Source: Candidatus Poribacteria bacterium
Lineage (GTDB): Bacteria; Poribacteria; WGA-4E; PCPOR2b
Assembly (NCBI GenBank): GCA_965116925.1
Contig: OZ220744.1
Location: forward strand, 1,280,001 to 1,344,000
DNA: 64,000 bases
Reading direction: 5' to 3'
How positions within the stretch are numbered: the stretch's first letter is position 1; the number at the start of each line of letters is the position of its first letter. This document shows, piece after piece, positions 16,088 to 56,131 of this stretch. The translations under genes and the position numbers were made by a program. The notes below the pieces were generated by a model. That model made no database searches. It saw nothing but the letters and a program-made list of their open reading frames with translations, and was not told the DNA's origin.

Positions 16088-17932
16088 ATGAACCAACAGA
16101 TTAGCGATAAACTCTCAAACCTACCTGCCGGTCCCGGTGTCTATCTGATGAAAGACGCAGCGGAAAAAGTGCTATACGTCGGCAAGGCAACCTCCTTGCG
16201 CCAGCGGGTCAGATCCTACTTCCAAAATGCTGCCACCCCACACGCCTTGACCAAACCAATGCTGCGCTATGTCGCCGATATCGACGCCATCCTTACTGCA
16301 AGCGATGTTGAGGCGTTAATCCTTGAAAATAACCTCATTAAGGAGTATCAGCCACGCTACAACATTAGACTCAAGGACGACAAACGCTATCCGTATCTAA
16401 AAGTGACCGTCAATGAACCGTTTCCGGGGCTTTACATTACGCGTCAAAAAGAGAATGATGGCGCAAAATATTTTGGTCCCTTTGTACATACCCGTGCGAC
16501 GCGGCAGACCATCAAGCAGCTGACAAAGGTCTTCCCTATCCGCACCTGTAATTTGGAATTGAAAGCATCAGGAAATCCACACCGTGTGTGCTTAGATTAT
16601 CACATTCAACGTTGTCCCGGTCCCTGTGCAGATCTCACCACCGTTGAGGATTACGATCAGATTGTGAAGAGTGTCCGCCGGTTTTTGAGCGGGGACACAG
16701 CGACGGTTCTAAAAGATCTGAAAGAAAAAATGCAGTCCGCTGCAACCGCACTCGATTTTGAAAGTGCCGCGAAATATCGAGACCAGATCGAGAATGTCAA
16801 GGACGCGATTGCCAAGCAGAACCTCGACAACGCGTCCGCAGAAAATGAGGACGTGATTGGTGTAGCGCGAGCGGGAGATGAAGCGTGTGCACAGGTGTTG
16901 ATGATACGCGATGGGAAGCTGATCGAACGCGAGCACTACTTCCTGAAGAATTCGTCTGACTCCATCATTGAGACGCTGACTGCATTTGTTCAGCAGTACT
17001 ATCAAGATGCCTCATTCATTCCGAAAACCATTTTGTTGCCTGACGACATCGAGATGCCGGGAGCCATCCAGCGTTGGCTATCCGAGAAGCGTGGTAGTCA
17101 GGTCACATTGTACATCCCACAGCGGGGGCGTAAACGTCAGTTAGTAGAGATGGCAGCGAAGAATGCGAGTATCATCCTTGAGCAGAAGGAACAGAACGTC
17201 GTCTTCAAAGCCGATGACAACCCCGCCCTGATTGAGTTACAAGAGTTGTTGAACCTACCTCACCCGCCAGCCCGTATTGAGGGGTTTGATATCTCCAATC
17301 TGGGAGATCGATTCCCTGTCGCCTCGATGGTGGTGATGGAAGATGCACAACCCGCGAAATCTGAGTATCGACGCTTTAAGATTCGTACCGTTGAAGGGCA
17401 GAATGACTATGCAATGATGCAGGAGGTCGTCACCCGTCGATTTCGTCGTGCTATTGACGAAAATCGTTTCCCAGATCTGATATTAATCGATGGAGGTAAG
17501 GGACAGTTAAGTGCCGCATACGAAATACTGCAAACACTGGATTTAAGCCATCTTCCAATTATTGGGCTTGCCAAGCGGTTCGAGCATATCTTTCTTCCCG
17601 GCAGATCTGATCCAATCGTGCTCCGGCGCGACAATCCGACACTTCACCTAATCCAGCGGTTGCGCGACGAAGCGCATAGATTCGCTATCACGTATCACCG
17701 AAAACGCCGCAGCCGCGCACTCAGTCACTCAATCCTTGATGAAATTCCGAATGTTGGTGTCAAGCGAAAACAGGCACTGCTTCAACATTTTGGGGCAATT
17801 GAAAAGATTCGTCAGGCCAGCCTTGATGAGCTGCTATCTGTGAAAGGGATACCGCACGGTGTTGCGGCAACTATTCACAAACACTTGAGGGAACAAGAAG
17901 GACAAACTATAGTGAATTCAAAAAATAAATGA
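16088..17932 (+). CDS. uvrC: Excinuclease ABC subunit C
   Basis: PGVYLMK..LYVGKA..LRQRVRSYF, DDKRYPY, RIEGFDIS, DGGKGQL, RDEAHRFA motifs and HhH tail. Confidence 0.97.
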   Translation: MNQQISDKLSNLPAGPGVYLMKDAAEKVLYVGKATSLRQRVRSYFQNAATPHALTKPMLRYVADIDAILTASDVEALILENNLIKEYQPRYNIRLKDDKRYPYLKVTVNEPFPGLYITRQKENDGAKYFGPFVHTRATRQTIKQLTKVFPIRTCNLELKASGNPHRVCLDYHIQRCPGPCADLTTVEDYDQIVKSVRRFLSGDTATVLKDLKEKMQSAATALDFESAAKYRDQIENVKDAIAKQNLDNASAENEDVIGVARAGDEACAQVLMIRDGKLIEREHYFLKNSSDSIIETLTAFVQQYYQDASFIPKTILLPDDIEMPGAIQRWLSEKRGSQVTLYIPQRGRKRQLVEMAAKNASIILEQKEQNVVFKADDNPALIELQELLNLPHPPARIEGFDISNLGDRFPVASMVVMEDAQPAKSEYRRFKIRTVEGQNDYAMMQEVVTRRFRRAIDENRFPDLILIDGGKGQLSAAYEILQTLDLSHLPIIGLAKRFEHIFLPGRSDPIVLRRDNPTLHLIQRLRDEAHRFAITYHRKRRSRALSHSILDEIPNVGVKRKQALLQHFGAIEKIRQASLDELLSVKGIPHGVAATIHKHLREQEGQTIVNSKNK

Positions 17933-18074
17933 ACACTTTCGCTCCTCGGTTTCGATCTCCCCGATAAATCCCCGATGCTCGGGGTAAACTTGTAAACTTA
18001 TTATCGGGACTTGGTAGGCGCTGTTTGTAACTGCGCCGATTTGGAGTGTCTCATTAATTCTAAAATCTACTATA
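17908..18074. mobile_element. MITE shell family A overlapping uvrC 3' end
   Basis: TATAGTGAATTCAAAAAATAAA...ATTAATTCTAAAATCTACTATA. Confidence 0.8.
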
Positions 18075-22268: not shown

Positions 22269-22372
22269 TATAGTGAATTCAAAAAACAAATGGACACTTC
22301 CCCCAGACCCGGTAGGTGCGGTTTTCAACCGCACCGGTTTGGTGTGTCTCATTAATTCTAAGATCTACTATA
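22269..22372. mobile_element. MITE shell family A, GGTAGGTGCGG..CCGCACC cargo
   Basis: Family A ends; lies between the promoter and the start codon. Confidence 0.8.
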
Positions 22373-31200: not shown

Positions 31201-31295
31201 CGCGCGGCAGTTGGAAAACGGGAGTGCTTGTTTTCCCGCTGTCTCGTTTTCTCGTTGGTCAGGTACTTATAACATCTGAATTGTCGTAAACACAT
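28233..31295 (-). CDS. gspD: Type II secretion secretin with six Secretin_N repeats
   Basis: N0 domain, repeated 'I..L.YA.A' N domains, QVWIDIQILEV and KLPILGDLPFIG..IITPHII. Confidence 0.9.
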   Translation of the reverse strand: MCLRQFRCYKYLTNEKTRQRENKHSRFPTAARALIFVMLSISIGCIAGFFTASVLAQEADQRGMEVAERDEAGQAIRFNFDFPSGNLQSLIKFISAETNLTIIASENEIKDKKFALTNLKNVTIDETLEEIKTVLAQYDLTMIRTNNTLLITTFEKAVRMKVPVKRITADPSLIEQTDEIQTYMIQLNSAVASELVNSLKPLLSKAANIFADGNSNSLIITDVASNIHRIATILQVTDEAPEAPLKVEIIPLQNATAASLAQTLNNVFQQEGEVANLLRKMGSTSKPEEMQEMMERVREEGGGIDMIRGRIQISADESSNSLVVKASEANLVVLRDLIRQLDTAPSIQTEIRIFRLNYAIAQDVAQVLEELITGVSAGRRPGSNSEWWERREWQRSRQNLMRRRAEGDQDYQSIVGAVNISSSDRLNAVLVSSDPRNFPIIEKIIAQLDQADPQEEIRIYFLQFAESQSLSDNLRDLFEGGDSGRDDDMPWWWRRRNEDRGGSEGGFGVQGEVHLVPDTRLNALLVSTASQNFETIDSLINRLDVNMPDQEWGTRIYKLRYADAENVANIINNVYQGSNNRSGGFFFFVPGRARNQNQGSLAGNVTAEAYPTLNAIIISTATQRNFTLITQFVEELDTPTPEEQREVTKLIRLEYANAEDTEDLLEDVWGEESGDDRGGFNFGRFLARGGTLEQNDINSLRGQVQVEADNQTNSVLVTTAQRYMEQVEAMIRELDFVRGQVWIDIQILEVTLDESTKLGVELTARERGLFGAEVRNRNPLVGEFGAELGLNQEISGFNISLATKEYMALLHTLIRENKVQTISTPALLTRDNREATWSSGRRVPFLQSADVTSLADNLTQPLFNYDFIDPPVGVTITLTPHIAKSQTADTKKRTIGLDIDQITLSNFVEFTDFNAPITEDSSISAFIDVEDGQQIVVGGMIKEKRQQIESKLPILGDLPFIGSIFKKTETVAENSEVVIIITPHIIDIQNPEDYGRLERQSEEWRLNGQNPEDDKQPSEK

Positions 31296-31445: not shown

Positions 31446-32897
31446 TTATAGCACCCTAGCGATCATTGAGAGATTTGCACTGATGGTCGTTTCCTTTTTG
31501 TCCGCTATAGTGATTTGCAGATCTCTGACCTGCAACCATTTCGAGCTTGATTCAATTGCGTAAATGAGTCGAACCACGCGCTCAATCCTGTTACTAAAGC
31601 GCATATCAACGATGTAAGTCTCAGGCTGATGGGTAGAGGGAACAGAGGCAAGCCAACTGTGCAGTTGATCTTCTCGTTCCAAAATCTGATCAACGTATTG
31701 GGTGAGCGCACGGAGTTGCCGGTCGTAATCCAACGTCCTTTCAGTATCTTCTGCATAATATTTCTCATAGCGATTAATTAATGTCTCGAATTTCGACAGT
31801 AGGACACTGTTAGGCTTGAACTTAATAGCCGTTGTCTGCTTTCTGGCACCGATGCCCAAAAATCCACCACTCGCTTCGTCGGTTTCTGCAGCGATTTGAG
31901 CCGCAAGAAATCCCCCCCTAAATTCAACTGTACCAGCCAGTTGTTGTTCCAGGTTTGATTGGATGAACTGTAGCAATTCGATTCGCAGCGTTAAAGGGAT
32001 TACCTCTGGTAGCGATATGAATTGCCGATTAGCTGCTCGATCCAGCGATTGCGGCGTTGATGGCTTATCCTTCGTTAGTGTGGAATCGACTTCCGAATCA
32101 GGCTCTTCAACTGTATCATCATCGACTGCCCGCTCTTCGGATTCGATTTCTGTTACGCCTTCCTGACCCTCATCTTCTGTATCATCTTTCCCCCACCAAG
32201 CATCGAACATGGCTTCCATCGTCGCTTCTTCAGTTTCGATTTGTCGCTGCTCCTCTTTTTCCTCTATGGCACTTTGTTGTGATTCTAACTGTTGGAGCTC
32301 GTTCGCTAGCTCGCCTAAATAAAGATGGTACACTAGATTTTTCTTCGCTTGCAATGGGAGATTCTCAGATTTTGCACCCGGCATTGGCCTAATATTGAGT
32401 TGATAATTGGGGCGCAACCCTGCTTTGCGCGCAAGATCGGAGATTCGTCTTGAAATTACCGCTTGAGCCTGCTCCCCCTCGAAGATAGGCCCTCGTATCT
32501 CCTTTAGCTTGGCTAAACTTTCAAATTCGCCGTAATGCTTCTTATAGGCGAGCAGGGAATCTGCTTTATTTTCAAGGGCAGGGTGCAGTACCGCCAGGGC
32601 GGCTGCGCGGTTTGCTCGGTTGAGGGCTTTCAAATCAACCCGATTTACAATCTCTTTAAACAGAGAATCAGAGATAATCTGACCTTCTAAACCGACCTGC
32701 GCTTGAATCTCCCGGTCAATTTGCTGCGTGACTTGAGCAAGTTGGACCAAGTTCTGTGCTGTTTCCAATTTCTCTTGTTTAGCAGCGAGTTCATCGCCCG
32801 GAAACCATTGCCGAATTATCGGCTCGATAAGAAGAATCAAGAGCACAAGACCAACGACAGCAAGTAAAACGATTTCACGCCGTGTAAGTTTTCTCAT
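31446..32897 (-). CDS. GspM/PilO-like inner-membrane protein with large insertions
   Basis: MRKLTRRE plus TM start; C-terminal 'LIYAIESS..LQVRDLQI' ferredoxin-like fold; position in operon. Confidence 0.65.
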   Translation of the reverse strand: MRKLTRREIVLLAVVGLVLLILLIEPIIRQWFPGDELAAKQEKLETAQNLVQLAQVTQQIDREIQAQVGLEGQIISDSLFKEIVNRVDLKALNRANRAAALAVLHPALENKADSLLAYKKHYGEFESLAKLKEIRGPIFEGEQAQAVISRRISDLARKAGLRPNYQLNIRPMPGAKSENLPLQAKKNLVYHLYLGELANELQQLESQQSAIEEKEEQRQIETEEATMEAMFDAWWGKDDTEDEGQEGVTEIESEERAVDDDTVEEPDSEVDSTLTKDKPSTPQSLDRAANRQFISLPEVIPLTLRIELLQFIQSNLEQQLAGTVEFRGGFLAAQIAAETDEASGGFLGIGARKQTTAIKFKPNSVLLSKFETLINRYEKYYAEDTERTLDYDRQLRALTQYVDQILEREDQLHSWLASVPSTHQPETYIVDMRFSNRIERVVRLIYAIESSSKWLQVRDLQITIADKKETTISANLSMIARVL

Positions 32898-34597
32898 TTG
32901 CCGACCTTCTTTTTTTCTAGGACATCGCTTTTCTGATTACTACTTTCGGATCTGCTAGGCACATTGTGATTGAGGTTACGGGTTTGGGCAAACTGATGTA
33001 TCGCATCTTTTGATAGATTGCAGGTAATCTGCGCCTGAAAAATTGGCGTCTTATCGCGTTCAATGCTCGTAACCTGACCAGATTTGATATTCGTAAATGC
33101 CCCTGATTGTGCCATAGTGCTTATTGTCTGACTCACATCTTGGTGCGATTGGGCTTCGATGTTAAAAGTAATCTTCGCTCTTTCAAGGTCATCTAATCTA
33201 GTGATGTTAAGTGTTGTCCAAGCGACTTTTGTACGGTCAGAAAACCGTACGCTCAATTCACGCACTATATCGAGTGGGGAAACACGAGGTGCTAAAAGAT
33301 TTACGATGGCTAAATCTTTGGTCAATGTTCTTTTTGCGTTGGATTCGGCTTGGCTGATGTTTCTGATCGCTCCATCCAGAGCAACAATTTTCGCCTGATG
33401 GATTCTGCTCTGCGTCAGTCCGCCCAACCCAAGCCCTACTAGCAGCACCAATCCAGCTGCAACAGCCATTAGCGTCCGCTTCCGCTGTTGGGCTTGTGTC
33501 AGTTTCATCTTCTCTTCTGAAGGAAGCAGGTCCAAGGAGATCTGGGAGGTCAACGCATTAACGCCTAGCCCCAATGCAACAGCAAGTGTATCGCTGAAAC
33601 CGTCAACAGATTGAGCGTCGGAGCGTTGTTCGTCCCACACTTCTTTGAACGCATCAAGTGGATTCCAGAGCAGGACTGGTACTTCTAACCGATCCGCGAT
33701 ATAGCCTGTTAGTCCAGAAATCCGCGCACCACCGCCACACAGCCAGATTTCACGAACGATACTATCCCCATTAATGTTGAGTTCCCGTTTCGCCCCGTTG
33801 ATAGAACGCTTCAACTCTGCGACCAGTCCATCCGCCCAGGCGTACGACGGATTGGTGGCTTGAAGGTGCTGATTCAGCACAGCATCCATAATTTTTCGAC
33901 GTTCAGCAATCTCAAAATCGCTCCCCGTTTCTTGCTGATAGAGATGCGTCAGATGATTTCCACCAATGGGAAAACTCCGTGAGAACCGTAGGGCATCTCC
34001 AGCTAGCAAGCAGAGGTCTGTCCGCCCCGCACCAATATCCACAATCATTGTCATTTCAGTTGATGAATCATCTTTGTGGCTTGCTATACCCGCCAACACA
34101 CTCGTTGCCAGTATCGAAGGCATCACACCTTTAGGTGTAATACCGAGTGGTTTCAGATAATCGATCTGCTGTTGTACCGTCTCACGCCGTGCAGCGATCA
34201 GTTCAACGGAAATACCATCCTCCGAGCGATGCACGTCATGGTGGTCATAGATAGCACCTTCCACCCGGAAGGGGAGTTCCGTCTCTGCTTGCATGGCAAC
34301 TAGACTAGCGAGTTGGTCATCTGTTGCAGCAGCAGGCAGGTTTGTCAGGCGACGCGACGTAACCAATAAGCGGGGAATTGATAACACCACTGAAGCACTA
34401 CGACCACCCACGCGTCTCCAGAGACGCTGTAAGGTTTCGGAGATCACTTCAGTCGGGATTTCCGCCGTTGGGTTGGTATGGGGATAGGGTTCCACCTCCG
34501 CGTTCACGAGGCGAATTCCGGCCGCAGTCTGTTCTAGCTGCACCAACTTAATCGCGCTTGTCCCAATATCAATGGATACGATTTGATTCTTCGCCAT
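32894..34597 (-). CDS. PilM-PilN fusion (GspL equivalent)
   Basis: SIDIGTSAIKLV, VDIGAGRT, LCGGGA, LDLLP, a TM segment and a PilN-like periplasmic domain. Confidence 0.85.
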   Translation of the reverse strand: MAKNQIVSIDIGTSAIKLVQLEQTAAGIRLVNAEVEPYPHTNPTAEIPTEVISETLQRLWRRVGGRSASVVLSIPRLLVTSRRLTNLPAAATDDQLASLVAMQAETELPFRVEGAIYDHHDVHRSEDGISVELIAARRETVQQQIDYLKPLGITPKGVMPSILATSVLAGIASHKDDSSTEMTMIVDIGAGRTDLCLLAGDALRFSRSFPIGGNHLTHLYQQETGSDFEIAERRKIMDAVLNQHLQATNPSYAWADGLVAELKRSINGAKRELNINGDSIVREIWLCGGGARISGLTGYIADRLEVPVLLWNPLDAFKEVWDEQRSDAQSVDGFSDTLAVALGLGVNALTSQISLDLLPSEEKMKLTQAQQRKRTLMAVAAGLVLLVGLGLGGLTQSRIHQAKIVALDGAIRNISQAESNAKRTLTKDLAIVNLLAPRVSPLDIVRELSVRFSDRTKVAWTTLNITRLDDLERAKITFNIEAQSHQDVSQTISTMAQSGAFTNIKSGQVTSIERDKTPIFQAQITCNLSKDAIHQFAQTRNLNHNVPSRSESSNQKSDVLEKKKVGK

Positions 34598-34695: not shown

Positions 34696-36243
34696 CTAAT
34701 TCTGTCTCCAATACTTGGTCACAATCTGTTCCCCAGTGCGATCAAGGGCACCAACACAAGAGGCAACCGTTTTGCCGAGATTGTCAACCCCTTCAGTTTC
34801 AATCAGAAAACCGTGTGACCGATAGGTAACCAACTCTGCGATCTGACGGAAAGTCCCCATATCAATCCCCTCAACCTCAAGCAGCTGATTGATGCGCTCA
34901 AAAGGATTTCCCTCAACCCCAGCTGCTTCCAATGCTTCAGCCCGCTCACTGTCTTCAGGTTGTGATTCGCGACGACTAATAATTGCACCCGCTTTGTCCA
35001 CGTCCATGCCCGGCAAAAGTTGTAATATCTCCTGCGGTGCCGTGTTGATGTTAATGAACCCGTTGACTATTGCGTCATCCTTTGTGGTAATTCGATCGAC
35101 TATGCTACCAAACTCATCCTCCGTTATCAGCTTTACCTCTTTGAGTTGATCAACATTTTGGAAGTTACCTTGACTGTTACGGTGGTCGACAATCCGTTCA
35201 GCGATACCCTCATCAATACCATCTAACGTCTGCAACTCTCCAGCATCGGCGGTGTTGATATTGACGATATCCTCCTCTTCGTCATTGCTTTCTATACTGA
35301 TCCGCTCGCGGATATTGTTAAAAACCTGCTCCGTGACCGCCGTTGCATCAATCAGATCGCCGATACTATCGAACTCACGCTGTTGAACCAATGCGTCCTT
35401 TTCCCCTTGGGAGAAAACGGGCTGATTGTTGTTCCCTCGGATCTGGGTCAGCTGCTGTCCGTCCGCGTTGTTAATGTTGACACGTGCATTGCCATTTGCA
35501 TCCGTATTTTTGTCGATCGAATAGACTGTCACCAGATCGACCAATCCGGGAACGTTTTGCTGCGTCCCTGTCGCGTCCATTCCTATATTACTACCTGTGC
35601 CCTCGACTGCATTTGGGGCTGCAGCAACCTGTTGCCCATAGAGCAGTGCCGATGTCATACCTTCGACTCGCGCTAAGTCCCGCACAGTGCGGTAGGGTCT
35701 TCCCTGCTCAATCACTTCAGCAAGTGATTGTTCCGTTGCTCCAACCTCTTGATAGCCCATCAGGGTCAATAGCCCTTGAATCATACTCACATCTGCCGTA
35801 TTGATGTTAATCTTGGCACCTTCATCGGTGATTTTAACGCGATAGATGAGGGGACGTGCAGCTTCAATACCCTCTCCTATCTGTTCTTCTAACCCCTCCG
35901 CCCAATTTTCTCCAAGTGAATCGTAAGGGGTTTCATCCCCACGAAGCATCACAACTGCTCGCTCAAACCCCGCCTTTGCGGCATAGTGGAACTTGGTTCG
36001 ATCCGCGAAATTTGCCTGCGCTCGCTGCTCTAGACGAATCGAATACAGAAAGTGCGTTGCAAGGACCGAAAGAACTGTCAGCAACCAGAGTGTCGAGATA
36101 AGAGAAAGTCCACACTCGCAGCGGACCAAAAAACGGGCAAATTGACTTTCCCGTTTTCTGGTTTTCTGGTTTTCTCGTTTTCGGGATGGCTCTGTACCTT
36201 TTGCGTCTTTGCGGTAAAAATCCGATTTATCCGCGATCGACAT
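34696..36243 (-). CDS. gspK: GspK minor pseudopilin with extra HhH repeats
   Basis: G|LSLISTLWLL, DSLGENW and DEGAKININ motifs; four NIN(T/N)A repeats. Confidence 0.85.
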   Translation of the reverse strand: MSIADKSDFYRKDAKGTEPSRKRENQKTRKRESQFARFLVRCECGLSLISTLWLLTVLSVLATHFLYSIRLEQRAQANFADRTKFHYAAKAGFERAVVMLRGDETPYDSLGENWAEGLEEQIGEGIEAARPLIYRVKITDEGAKININTADVSMIQGLLTLMGYQEVGATEQSLAEVIEQGRPYRTVRDLARVEGMTSALLYGQQVAAAPNAVEGTGSNIGMDATGTQQNVPGLVDLVTVYSIDKNTDANGNARVNINNADGQQLTQIRGNNNQPVFSQGEKDALVQQREFDSIGDLIDATAVTEQVFNNIRERISIESNDEEEDIVNINTADAGELQTLDGIDEGIAERIVDHRNSQGNFQNVDQLKEVKLITEDEFGSIVDRITTKDDAIVNGFININTAPQEILQLLPGMDVDKAGAIISRRESQPEDSERAEALEAAGVEGNPFERINQLLEVEGIDMGTFRQIAELVTYRSHGFLIETEGVDNLGKTVASCVGALDRTGEQIVTKYWRQN

Positions 36244-36261
36244 TACATATTATTCCTTTCT

Positions 36262-36371
36262 GGCTCATATAAAAAGAAAGTGCAAAATACCGAAAGAAAT
36301 CGTAGGCGGGGCATCTTGCCCCGCCCGTGCCAAAAACTTAATTTCTATTGCACGCTTTCTTAACATGAGCT
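36262..36371. mobile_element. MITE shell family B with GTAG-REP cargo
   Basis: Perfect 8-bp TSD TCCTTTCT (36254-36261, 36372-36379). Confidence 0.85.
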
Positions 36372-36383
36372 TCCTTTCTTTCC

Positions 36384-37292
36384 TCATCCACCCGGTCCTG
36401 CTGCACCGGTTCCACCGGCCGGTTGTTCACTGAAGTTCGCACTCATAGGCAGATAAACCATTGTCGATTGGGTTCTGGTATTAGTGCCGGTATTCTGACG
36501 CTGCCGACCGCTTTCACCCGCGACTGTTACCCAGACGACAACGGATGCCGGAATCATTTCGGTGTCGTCCCACGACTCATACCACTCCTCGCCATCGTAG
36601 TATCTCAAATCAAAAGAGGTAATCTGATCGATGATTGGAACAATATTTACATAGATTGGATTCCCCGCTTCATCTTCAGTGGGAAGTGTGTCTGATTCGA
36701 GCAGCGGTTGGATAACGGTTTCCACATCCAAAGCTGTTGTTGACAATCGGTAAAGTGCTAATCCGCCCTCCGCTTCGCTGTCTGCCGTCAATAACCCTCC
36801 ACCCATATCCATCCGGTCCGCTTGCTCGTTTTCCAGTTGCCAAGCACTATCTTCTCCAATATAGTAAGCGATTCGCTGGACATCGCTTACAAGTTCCTCC
36901 TGACTGAAATCTTCATCTGTGATGACCGTTTGATTTCCCGCATTCAGTTGAGCGAGAAATGGATCGGGATCGGTATGAATCAACGTCACGAAACTGATTA
37001 AATCTCGGTCAATTCCTTCCTCGATCGGATTATCCTGCGACACAATGACGAGAGACTCATCGCCCTGTACAGCTTGCAGGTTGCTCAAGTCGGCGGCAAC
37101 TTGCTCTAATGCGATTCGACATTTCTGCGTCATCACGATCCGTGATTCAGACTTCTGGTAAACATCTAACGCAACATTGAACGCCGTGTAGGAGGCACCT
37201 CCAATAATGACCAGAATGCTGACAGCGACAAGCAATTCAAGCAAGGTAAAACCGTGGGCGTTGGATATAGACCGTGAAATGTGAGACCTCAT
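36384..37292 (-). CDS. gspJ: Minor pseudopilin GspJ
   Basis: HG|FTLLELLVA; FDLRYYDG..W..SWD; ATG overlaps the gspI stop. Confidence 0.8.
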   Translation of the reverse strand: MRSHISRSISNAHGFTLLELLVAVSILVIIGGASYTAFNVALDVYQKSESRIVMTQKCRIALEQVAADLSNLQAVQGDESLVIVSQDNPIEEGIDRDLISFVTLIHTDPDPFLAQLNAGNQTVITDEDFSQEELVSDVQRIAYYIGEDSAWQLENEQADRMDMGGGLLTADSEAEGGLALYRLSTTALDVETVIQPLLESDTLPTEDEAGNPIYVNIVPIIDQITSFDLRYYDGEEWYESWDDTEMIPASVVVWVTVAGESGRQRQNTGTNTRTQSTMVYLPMSANFSEQPAGGTGAAGPGG

Positions 37293-37852
37293 CCGCCACC
37301 CCCTTGTCCCTGTTGACCGCCCTGCGTCTGCTGCTGCGGCATCTGACGGTCTGCGAGATAGGTACTCGTTGAAATTAACCTTTCTTTGCCGCGCTCTTGC
37401 CACGTGACGGTAATGGTTACTAAGCGCAGCCCTTCAATCTCATCCGATTCCACATCTTGGACATCCGAATGCCAACGGAATCGTGAATCCTCTCCAAATT
37501 CACCCTCCTCTTCGCCTATATCCGGATACCCTTCAGATTCAATTGCCGCCATCCGAAATTTAAGGAGATACAGCGCGGTTGTTCTGTTTTCTGCCAATGC
37601 TTGCCCCTTTGCCGCTTCCGTAAAGGAACGCAGCAACGCCGGCAGAGCTAATGACAAAATGGCTAGCGTGACGACAATTTCGATTAGGGTAAAGCCGTTT
37701 TTGTCGTCTGCTGATCGGCGGAAAAATGAGAGGTTCTTGTTAAGAAAGCGTCCGACAGAAACCGTAGGGGCGGGGTTCCCCCGCCCGTGTTTCGCATCTT
37801 GCGCTTCCTTTTTATATGAGCCAAATGAGATTAGGTTATTCAGGGGGTTCAT
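37289..37852 (-). CDS. gspI: Minor pseudopilin GspI
   Basis: NG|FTLIEIVV, FRW and VTITVTW motifs. Confidence 0.82.
   Translation of the reverse strand: MNPLNNLISFGSYKKEAQDAKHGRGNPAPTVSVGRFLNKNLSFFRRSADDKNGFTLIEIVVTLAILSLALPALLRSFTEAAKGQALAENRTTALYLLKFRMAAIESEGYPDIGEEEGEFGEDSRFRWHSDVQDVESDEIEGLRLVTITVTWQERGKERLISTSTYLADRQMPQQQTQGGQQGQGGGG
37732..37822. mobile_element. MITE shell family B inside the gspI coding sequence
   Basis: Perfect 8-bp TSD AAATGAGA (37724-37731, 37823-37830). Confidence 0.88.
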
Positions 37853-38567
37853 CTGTCAACTCCAACGCCTCAAGTTGCTGCGAGTTAATTTTCTGAAGAC
37901 GCACCCGGCCCGCTGCGTTTTCGACCGTTATGGACATCGCTTTACCGCGCCCATCTTGAATATATAGCACTGTGTCCTCCGACGAGCCCGTTGGAGAAAA
38001 GTAGATATAATCCACACCGGTATCTATTTGAATAGTCTGAAAATTATGATTCGTTATCATGCGTGCTAAACTCACATTATGCCCCGGTTTCTGTGGTATT
38101 CCAAGGATTGCATTTGTTCGTGAAGGGGGTGGTTGCTGCAATACTGCCATTCCTTGATCTGCGGTTGGTTGTTGAGCGGGTAGCGAACTTGGGGGACTCG
38201 CGGTTACAGGCGTGGACAGGGCTCCGAGATTGAAAGTTTCGTTAGAGGCAAGCCAGTAGCGGTTTGTCGTCAAATCAAACACAACGAGGTAAGCTGCCCG
38301 CTCAGTAATTGCCATATCACGCGCAAAATTGAGCATATCTCGGATGGCATGGGCGGTGGATTTCAAGCGCGTCGATGCGGCGAAGCCGCGTAGAGAGGGC
38401 ATCGCAATAGAGGAGAGAATTGCGATTAACGCAAGCACGATCATGACCTCGATTAGCGTAAACCCTTTCGAGGTCAGCAGATATAAACCTCTTTTACTAT
38501 GTAGGGTGCAACTATCGCATCGGGATGAACCCCTTTCTGAACACAAAATCCATCTGGGCAGGTGCAT
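37836..38567 (-). CDS. gspH: Minor pseudopilin GspH/FimT-like
   Basis: KG|FTLIEVMIV, FARDMAI and IYFSPTG motifs. Confidence 0.82.
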   Translation of the reverse strand: MHLPRWILCSERGSSRCDSCTLHSKRGLYLLTSKGFTLIEVMIVLALIAILSSIAMPSLRGFAASTRLKSTAHAIRDMLNFARDMAITERAAYLVVFDLTTNRYWLASNETFNLGALSTPVTASPPSSLPAQQPTADQGMAVLQQPPPSRTNAILGIPQKPGHNVSLARMITNHNFQTIQIDTGVDYIYFSPTGSSEDTVLYIQDGRGKAMSITVENAAGRVRLQKINSQQLEALELTDEPPE

Positions 38568-44877: not shown

Positions 44878-45234
44878 TATAGTGATAGGAGTTACGCACT
44901 TCAGTTTGTAGTAGCGCAATTCATTGCGCGTTCTTCCCTCCCCTTGCTTGCGGGGGATAGAGGGGGGACGGGCGATGAATCACCGAACTACAAGGCTTTG
45001 ACCATTCAGCTGCGTAAGTCCTAAGTGAATTCAAAAAATAAATAGACATTGTTTGGTAGGCGCTGTTTCCAACTGCGCCGATTTGGAGTGTCTCACACTT
45101 TCGCTCCTCATCTGGTAGGCGCTGTTTCCAACTGCGCCGATTTGGAGTGTCTCACACTTTCGCTCCTCATCTGGTAGGCGCTGTTTCCAACTGCGCCGAT
45201 TTGGAGTGTCTCGTTAATTCTAAAATCTACTATA
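44878..45234. mobile_element. Family A MITE with internal 59-bp tandem amplification and nested family E element (44886-45023)
   Basis: AGTGA duplicated at 44881-44885 and 45024-45028; repeat units start at 45055, 45114 and 45173. Confidence 0.85.
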
Positions 45235-47394: not shown

Positions 47395-47646
47395 TATAGT
47401 AAACACGAGAAATAAGGATACATTTACTAATAATTTCAACCGGCGCGCAATCTTCAAAGTCCCCCTGATAAGGGGGATTTAGGGGATTGGTTGTGTGTCG
47501 AGAGTGTCTCATTAATTCTAAAATCTACTATAGTTGATTATAGTGAATTCAAAAAATAAAGAAACACTTGCGCCCCCCATGTTTGGTAGGCGCTGTTTTC
47601 AACTGCGCCGATTTGGAATGTCTCATTAATTCTAAAATCTACTATA
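47395..47646. mobile_element. Two tandem family A MITEs (47395-47532, 47539-47646) with different cargo
   Basis: Both end ..TAAAATCTACTATA and are each followed by GTTGATTA. Confidence 0.8.
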
Positions 47647-55951: not shown

Positions 55952-56028
55952 ATCATCTTGATTTCCTAGATACAGCAGCCGCTTTTGATCGACTTGATAA
56001 AACAACCCTTTCCGAAGGGATCTTATAG
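55948..56028 (+). pseudogene. Truncated gene remnant, HEPN-protein-like N-terminus
   Basis: MNHLDFLDTA..SEG ends at a TAG supplied by the family A MITE. Confidence 0.4.
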
Positions 56029-56131
56029 TGAATTCAAAAAATAAATGAACACTTTCGCTCCCCATGTTTGGTAGGCGCTGTTTGTAACTGCGCCGATTTG
56101 GAGTGTTTCATTAATTCTAAAATCTACTATA
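56024..56131. mobile_element. MITE shell family A
   Basis: Near-identical to 47539-47646. Confidence 0.82.

Follow-up and report, generated by a model that had tools for sequence, protein, structure and literature searches.

An IS1595-family MITE in frame in the prepilin leader of gspI in Candidatus Poribacteria, and enrichment of in-frame copies in predicted export leaders of the genus

The gspI locus

The DNA analysed here (the window) is a stretch of 64,000 nucleotides from contig OZ220744.1 of a Candidatus Poribacteria bacterium. The genome of the window is termed G000, and G001, G005, G017 and so on denote its congeners. The minus strand of the window carries a type II secretion operon consisting of gspE, gspF, gspG, gspH, gspI, gspJ, gspK, a PilM-like gene, a further gene and the secretin gene. 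In G000, each of the ten operon genes queried has an intact ORF. The gene for the minor pseudopilin GspI, which is single-copy in this genome, is flanked by gspH and gspJ.

37289..37852, minus strand: gspI, minor pseudopilin; ORF of 187 aa with a 53-residue leader and predicted G/F cleavage between 37694 and 37693
37850..37863, minus strand: gspI start codon ATG (37852-37850), a GGAG lying 7 bases upstream of it; overlaps the gspH end; ATG conserved in 19 of 19 congeners
37836..38567, minus strand: gspH; leader of 35 residues in the window, 27-72 residues in the genus

The Pfam model N_methyl matched residues 51-69 of the gspI product with 26.6 bits, above the cut-off of 21.2, and the G/F-x-x-x-E motif and the hydrophobic helix are present. 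The match to T2SSI (PF02501) remained under its cut-off of 25 (17.8 bits, E 0.0035); some homologues carry the source name 'type II secretion system protein I'. N_methyl matched four genes in G000, which has one prepilin peptidase gene, intact and with both domains.

Several neighbouring genes were inspected as well. The product encoded at the gspL position (32894-34597) matches PilM_2/FtsA, not a GspL family, and the gene next to this PilM-like gene (31446-32897) had no match in a Pfam search. In several congeners, gspK and the PilM-like gene are separated by extra DNA. The gspH leaders (window 38463-38567; L142-L159) come in nine lengths of 27-72 residues, and in 18 of 19 genus genomes the leader stays in frame with a conserved start ATG. 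Relics of a GTAG hairpin repeat were seen in some gspH leaders and in the secretin n-regions of several congeners.

The insertion in the gspI leader

The gspI leader is interrupted by a short element lying between two copies of the octamer AAATGAGA, at 37724-37731 and 37823-37830, with 91 bp between them.

37732..37822, minus strand: MITE of an IS1595-derived family with imperfect terminal inverted repeats; 91 bp, giving 30 codons and 1 further base in the gspI frame
37823..37830: copy of the target-site duplication on the side of the gspI start, 8/8 identical to its partner
37724..37731: copy of the target-site duplication on the side of the cleavage site, 8/8 identical to its partner
37764..37787, plus strand: GTAG-tagged G+C-rich hairpin at the element centre; the same short stretch is matched many times in the genome

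The target site is an A+T-rich octamer covering codons 8-10. Together with one octamer copy the element amounts to 99 bp, that is 33 stop-free codons after codon 10, so that the first-pass annotation of this DNA was correct in claiming a 91-bp MITE with a perfect 8-bp duplication and an uninterrupted 33-codon addition. In silico removal of the element and one octamer gave a 154-aa protein with a 20-residue leader, the same leader before FTLIE as had been predicted there.

The lengthened leader of 53 residues has a net charge of +5, and its highest hydropathy over 11 residues is 0.65. Neither the element nor the stretch from it to the cleavage site contains an in-frame ATG, GTG or TTG; the first one downstream lies 22 codons beyond the element, within the hydrophobic helix. 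Both in-frame starts of the element are gone in the gspI copy (GTG to GCG; terminal ATG to AAG), and read-through is therefore the only canonical route there. Compared with its nearest sister, this copy differs at 12 of 91 bases, mostly altering residues, and it is the second most diverged of the 34 copies of 91 bp. The central GTAG hairpin, which we take to be REP-like, is the inner stem within a long hairpin predicted over the element in an mRNA folding model, with the region folding no better than shuffled sequences (z -1.42). An Rfam search with the element matched no family.

Orthologues without the insert

A gspI match was found in 59 of 61 related genomes. The insert is absent from all 28 aligned orthologous loci (29 fetched), and in 19 of 19 congeners a 20-residue leader begins at the same ATG. 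Leader lengths were compared among the 133 of 134 homologues that have the cleavage motif: 73 have 20 residues, the range is 5-73, and only two have 53 residues, namely the GspI of the window and P0133. The leader of about 20 residues without the insert that had been expected from an orthologue alignment is thus what the congeners show. Neither of two observations that would have spoken against an insertion was made: the only in-frame start before the cleavage site precedes the element, and none of the aligned loci without terminal inverted repeats encodes the 33 residues.

The element family and its IS1595 partner

In G000, 70 of 159 terminal-repeat pairs spaced by up to 300 bp had an exact 8-bp duplication, versus 6 with one of 7 bp and 4 with one of 9 bp. 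Profiles of the element ends detected 199 short pairs in this genome, 126 of them matching at 7 or 8 of 8 duplicated positions, with a target A+T content of 78%; the reversed genome, used as a control, gave 0 matches. A duplication of at least 6/8 was present for 138 copies. The element centres differ and contain several hairpins. Loci with the exact 19-base element end come almost all from Candidatus Poribacteria records, and the best-matching sequencing runs with a named source are sponge metagenomes. A second copy of the family lies close to gspI.

36262..36371: same-family MITE copy of 110 bp with an 8-bp duplication, in the gspJ-gspK spacer, non-coding

No IS1595 transposase was matched in G000 (99% complete), and one is present in 16 of 19 congeners. 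In G005, a 985-bp element (L212:1418-2402) combines the same ends and an 8-bp duplication with a zinc-ribbon/HTH ORF and a DDE_Tnp_IS1595 ORF, for which PF12762 scored above its cut-off. Like ends on either side of the transposase were also found in L194, L196 and L205, in total 4 of the 51 IS1595 loci scanned. Judged from the ends it shares with the full-length G005 partner, the 91-bp element is a MITE of an IS1595-family transposon, and such a transposase probably mobilised the gspI copy.

Two other candidates for a partner were rejected. ISL3 was dismissed as PF01610 had no match in G000. Two 981-bp elements of G000 with MITE ends (G000:C1:5709940-5710920 and 5899568-5900548; L036 and L037) each consist of a MITE in which an unrelated transposase gene is nested. 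Both contain the same 267-codon transposase gene, presumably IS5/IS1031-like, at the same spot in one terminal repeat. Their MITE parts are unlike and their nested parts match, which points either to two separate insertions at a favoured site or to movement of a composite. A further arrangement in G000 (G000:C1:5431687-5433696) consists of a 430-codon lipoprotein-like gene between two MITE copies with a perfect 8-bp duplication outside the pair, possibly a composite transposon made by MITEs.

The frame used in gspI is also open in sister copies, and its openness is therefore a property of the family, not a result of selection at gspI. Among the copy-by-phase combinations in G000, 52 of 828 are both a multiple of three and open. 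The main length classes are 91, 109, 115, 118, 121 and 133 bp, each of which adds whole codons once the 8-bp duplication is included. Translated in its open phase, the element gives basic residues and, after them, a mildly hydrophobic stretch. An outward terminal ATG is kept at 246 of 276 element ends in G000, and in the gspI phase it is in frame with the downstream gene. Outside the genus, the peptide profile matched only 1 of 31 genomes, all 31 from the same order.

Persistence of the gspI insertion

Contigs from other studies span the junctions of the insert, and a second insert-bearing protein of 187 aa, P0133, was found; the insert is therefore not an assembly error. Contigs of runs X3 and X2 are identical to the window where they matched, one X3 contig spanning the upstream junction, and X2 additionally contains a relative with an empty gspI site. 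In the RNA run X6, two contigs with 96-98% identity extend into the element from its two sides, and no indel is listed for them; as these are contigs and the run may contain DNA, they are evidence for the presence of the insert, not for its transcription. Among the differences listed between X6 and the window (24 of 31 on one contig, whose 3' part may be recombinant), 13 are synonymous and 7 non-synonymous in mature gspI, and 10 and 3, respectively, in gspH. The raw reads of run X21 gave 0 reads on the stretch and hence no test; runs with a small share were left out.

P0133, the third insert-bearing allele, has 1 change in the insert and 5 in the mature part, and the frame is kept in all three alleles (window, X6 strain, P0133). 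Mature gspI shows a dN/dS of 0.045-0.15 against nine congeners. A rough three-way split assigned about 6 non-synonymous and 11.5 synonymous changes to the G000 branch, slightly higher than the 3 to 11 between G005 and G001. Protein searches with the insert peptide (residues 1-55 against near lengths, 6 candidates; residues 8-47 against longer proteins, 1 candidate) found nothing, weak negatives because P0133 was missed as well. A scan of metagenome contigs gave one distant locus. In summary of these data, the gspI insertion is a real, recent-to-moderately-old IS1595-type MITE insertion and most likely a harmless one. It belongs to a set found across the genus and concentrated in export leaders.

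In-frame copies in G000 and in the genus

All 138 G000 copies with a duplication of at least 6/8 were removed in silico and the frame was checked. Although 53 of them add whole codons, the gspI copy is the only one inside a gene with the frame open. A home-made caller gave 5255 genes, of which 1004 had a signal-like N-terminus, and these calls were combined with a target model. Under this model leaders make up 4.1% of coding targets, and 1.7% without target preference. The expectation for G000 without selection is 15-48 open in-frame insertions in genes, with 0.6-0.8 falling in leaders. The single surviving copy in a leader, with none in other parts of genes, fits near-neutral leaders and purged gene bodies. 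One further G000 copy (C1:668253) was considered as a frameshifting N-terminal insertion rescued by restart and rejected: its upstream frame is unconserved in 16 orthologues, which makes it an untranslated leader.

The survey was extended to 19 congeners with peptide profiles of both open phases, scoring the best 150 candidates per genome. This yielded 416 matches for one phase, ranking above 522 weaker ones, and 249 for the other, with many copies found in both phases. We examined 45 stop-free sites at any position in an open frame of at least about 125 codons, setting aside antisense readings of examined sites and one G000 site. Signal peptides and gene starts were called by heuristics and by eye, short proteins were missed and the events are few. 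Among the matches listed, seven sites, representing six independent events, lie in Sec or lipoprotein signal peptides.

L235: di-haem oxidoreductase lipoprotein
L237, L254: lipoprotein of unknown function, two species; empty alleles with the same start in 8 of 10 orthologues
L243: giant Ig/cadherin protein; empty allele with the same start in G017
L245: esterase with dockerin and FlgD domains
L247: lipoprotein
L255 (G005:C1:2213245-2213335): Ig-domain protein; insertion late in the hydrophobic region, cleavage less certain

For four of the six events G000 has empty alleles with the same upstream start. Two leader insertions are each common to two species, with frame-keeping indels between them (L295/L300; L305/L307). 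In the opposite orientation the L255 element encodes a Met followed by a basic and a hydrophobic stretch, which is itself signal-peptide-like. A further event (L233 and L246, two sites representing one event) is a probable insertion in the n-region of an S58 peptidase. In nine readable congener loci an in-frame ATG lies five codons upstream in five and a TTG in three, and a second ATG follows the element; the pattern used for this check left 10 of 20 loci unmatched and gave one spurious match.

Three internal in-frame events were found among the matches listed, in a HEPN_RiboL-PSP gene (L244, shortly before the RxxxxH motif of the HEPN domain), a TPR gene (L262) and a gene of unknown function (L256). 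Another TPR gene (L280) has an internal copy with stops. Probably these four insertions are knock-outs of dispensable genes. The remaining 33 of the 45 sites lie before a native start, in a non-coding or antisense frame or beside a truncated gene, as judged by codon score, by eye and from G000 orthologues where present.

Counting gspI, 7 of 10 independent in-frame events among the matches listed are located in export leaders, compared with about 2-4% expected (binomial P 2e-8 at a share of 4.1%). If gspI is omitted (6 of 9), P is 3.6e-7 at 4.1% and 6e-4 at a generous share of 15%; with L255 counted out as well, it is 1.3e-5. The enrichment of in-frame copies in export leaders is the pattern shown by these counts, for which the removal of leaders is the presumed cause. 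The first-pass annotation had put forward cleaved leaders as coding 'safe havens'. Its positional part gains support from these events, and read-through and removal by the peptidase are what we infer to lie behind it. Taken together, the data suggest that disposable leaders shelter selfish DNA.

A probable tolerated passenger in the gspI leader

We consider it likely that the gspI insert is a tolerated passenger which is read through and then removed by prepilin peptidase. According to this model, an IS1595-family transposase acting in trans would have moved the 91-bp MITE into the gspI octamer. Ribosomes would start at the native ATG coupled to gspH and read through the MITE, as its 91 bases and the 8 duplicated ones make 33 codons in a phase that is open by design. 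The leader would thereby be lengthened from 20 to 53 hydrophilic, net basic residues and would remain cytoplasmic. Prepilin peptidase would cut at the unchanged G/F site, which, from the known processing of class III signals, should leave mature GspI normal. The insertion would thus be near-neutral and could have persisted. Across the genus the same filter would leave in-frame copies mainly in cleaved export leaders and purge them elsewhere in needed genes. The varied in-frame lengths of the gspH leaders also speak for this model, and the three stop-free internal copies and the slightly raised non-synonymous share of the G000 branch speak against it.

Three other explanations were weighed against this one. 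The insertion might damage gspI, by poor targeting or processing or through an mRNA hairpin that lowers output, in a gene or secretion system that is slowly decaying. Copies of the family do persist in dispensable-looking genes (L280 TPR with stops; L244 HEPN), a long hairpin is predicted over the element and the non-synonymous share on the G000 branch is slightly raised. However, none of the ten operon genes queried is broken, the dN/dS of gspI stays at 0.045-0.15, three insert-bearing alleles have kept the frame and the predicted fold is no better than that of shuffles (z -1.42), so that decay appears improbable. Co-option of the insert, with its hairpin or the lengthened leader tuning the level or processing rate of GspI or the released basic peptide of 53 residues having a function, is more improbable still. 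The copy is old, common to diverged strains and has lost both internal in-frame starts, but the loss of both among 12 changes is within reach of chance. These 12 substitutions from the nearest sister are mostly residue-changing and give no sign that the peptide is constrained, and the insert is absent from 19 of 19 congeners.

The copies in leaders might also be protected by their N-terminal position or by restart at the terminal ATG of the element rather than by leader cleavage. Restart is made plausible by the retention of this ATG at 246 of 276 element ends in G000 and by its being in frame in five of the six other leader events, all except L255, where an ATG at the beginning of the element is in frame and offers a restart alternative too. 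Moreover, in G005 the element ATG occupies the native start position of a small protein (L286:1587-1676; native start seen in G000), probably with an adjacent deletion, as no duplication is present. N-termini are in addition A+T-rich and favoured targets. Yet the gspI copy itself has no terminal ATG, and all seven N-terminal events concern proteins with export signals, which account for 20-30% of N-terminal targets (P 2e-4 at 30%). Restart requires neither a multiple of three nor an open frame, and still 0 of the 137 other G000 copies lies in a leader where 3-4 would be expected (P 0.02-0.04). Of 13 stop-carrying congener copies and four G000 site-frames beside long frames, likewise, none occurs in a leader, and a TPR gene contains one of them. 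We therefore regard position or restart as an unlikely source of the protection and retain the passenger model for gspI.

A broader reading goes beyond this locus. Cleaved export leaders of the prepilin, Sec and lipoprotein types may constitute a general coding niche for miniature transposons, in which a pre-adapted MITE keeps remodelling the leaders of secreted proteins of this genus; we advance this only tentatively. If it holds, host signal peptidases would take the role that self-splicing has for inteins and introns. In-frame bacterial repeats are usually seen as new protein sequence, and here selfish DNA would be translated and then discarded by host peptidases. This would explain part of the length variation in signal and prepilin leaders. 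The natural allele pairs, with leaders of 20 and 53 residues and the same mature protein, offer a test of the leader length that prepilin peptidase accepts. For annotation, a long and odd N-terminus ahead of a cleavage motif need not indicate a wrong start call.

Comparison with known systems

In the available portions of PMC10191384 and PMC6497953, class III leaders are described as hydrophilic, variable in length, cytoplasmic and cut after their final Gly or Ala by the peptidase alone. Like these signal peptides, the gspI leader ends in Gly and is followed by a hydrophobic helix with Glu at +5; it differs from them in its 53 residues, 33 of which are transposon-derived. Variable leaders are documented in these portions, and a processed leader of 53 residues does not appear in them.

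Rickettsia palindromic elements lie in ORFs in nearly half of the cases and modify the protein product, according to the accessible part of PMC10969869. They share with the gspI MITE that they are short hairpin-forming repeats with a built-in open frame, located in frame in coding genes. Unlike these elements, only 1 of 138 G000 MITE copies is in a gene, and the copies found in genes are concentrated in leaders whose removal is predicted. An IS1595 partner was moreover identified for the gspI MITE, which has terminal repeats and an 8-bp duplication. Since no high proportion of its family lies in genes with the peptide retained in the product, the gspI MITE is not classed as a Rickettsia palindromic element. 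The analogy drawn in the first-pass annotation accordingly holds for in-frame placement in coding genes (gspI, 6-7 leader and 3 internal events) and fails for the large share in ORFs.

The enterobacterial repeats RU-1/ERIC, RU-2 and RU-3 are likewise MITE-like repeats with open frames in annotated genes; in the part of Delihas 2007 (PMC2759123) available, RU-2 makes up residues 1-30 of the signal peptide predicted for YPO1552. There the repeats supply the N-terminus and are proposed to create new proteins, whereas the gspI MITE interrupts an existing leader past a conserved start. For the gspI MITE, moreover, empty orthologues are at hand and the leader enrichment was counted against a null. 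It has the matching ends and the 8-bp duplication of IS1595 elements and differs from them in being non-autonomous with a hairpin as cargo. The available text of PMC3119063 contains nothing on leaders. Intragenic in-frame repeats are thus already known, and a search mainly of openly accessible papers found none that reports MITEs to be enriched in cleaved leaders.

Other repeats in the window

Short purine-rich repeats found genome-wide are present in frame in the gspK leader (36145-36187) and in the secretin n-region (31230-31256), with copy numbers that vary among congeners. As candidates for insertions of the gspI MITE they were rejected, being other short repeats that some congeners share. 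Positions 558-1430 contain a tandem array of five to six coding repeats, each 141-165 bp long, resembling those of a beta-propeller repeat protein. A second interspersed family, whose members are about 109 bp long and have a GTAG hairpin, is located at 17908-18074, 22269-22372, 45021-45234, 47538-47646 and 56023-56131, and one of its copies has a 59-bp triplication.
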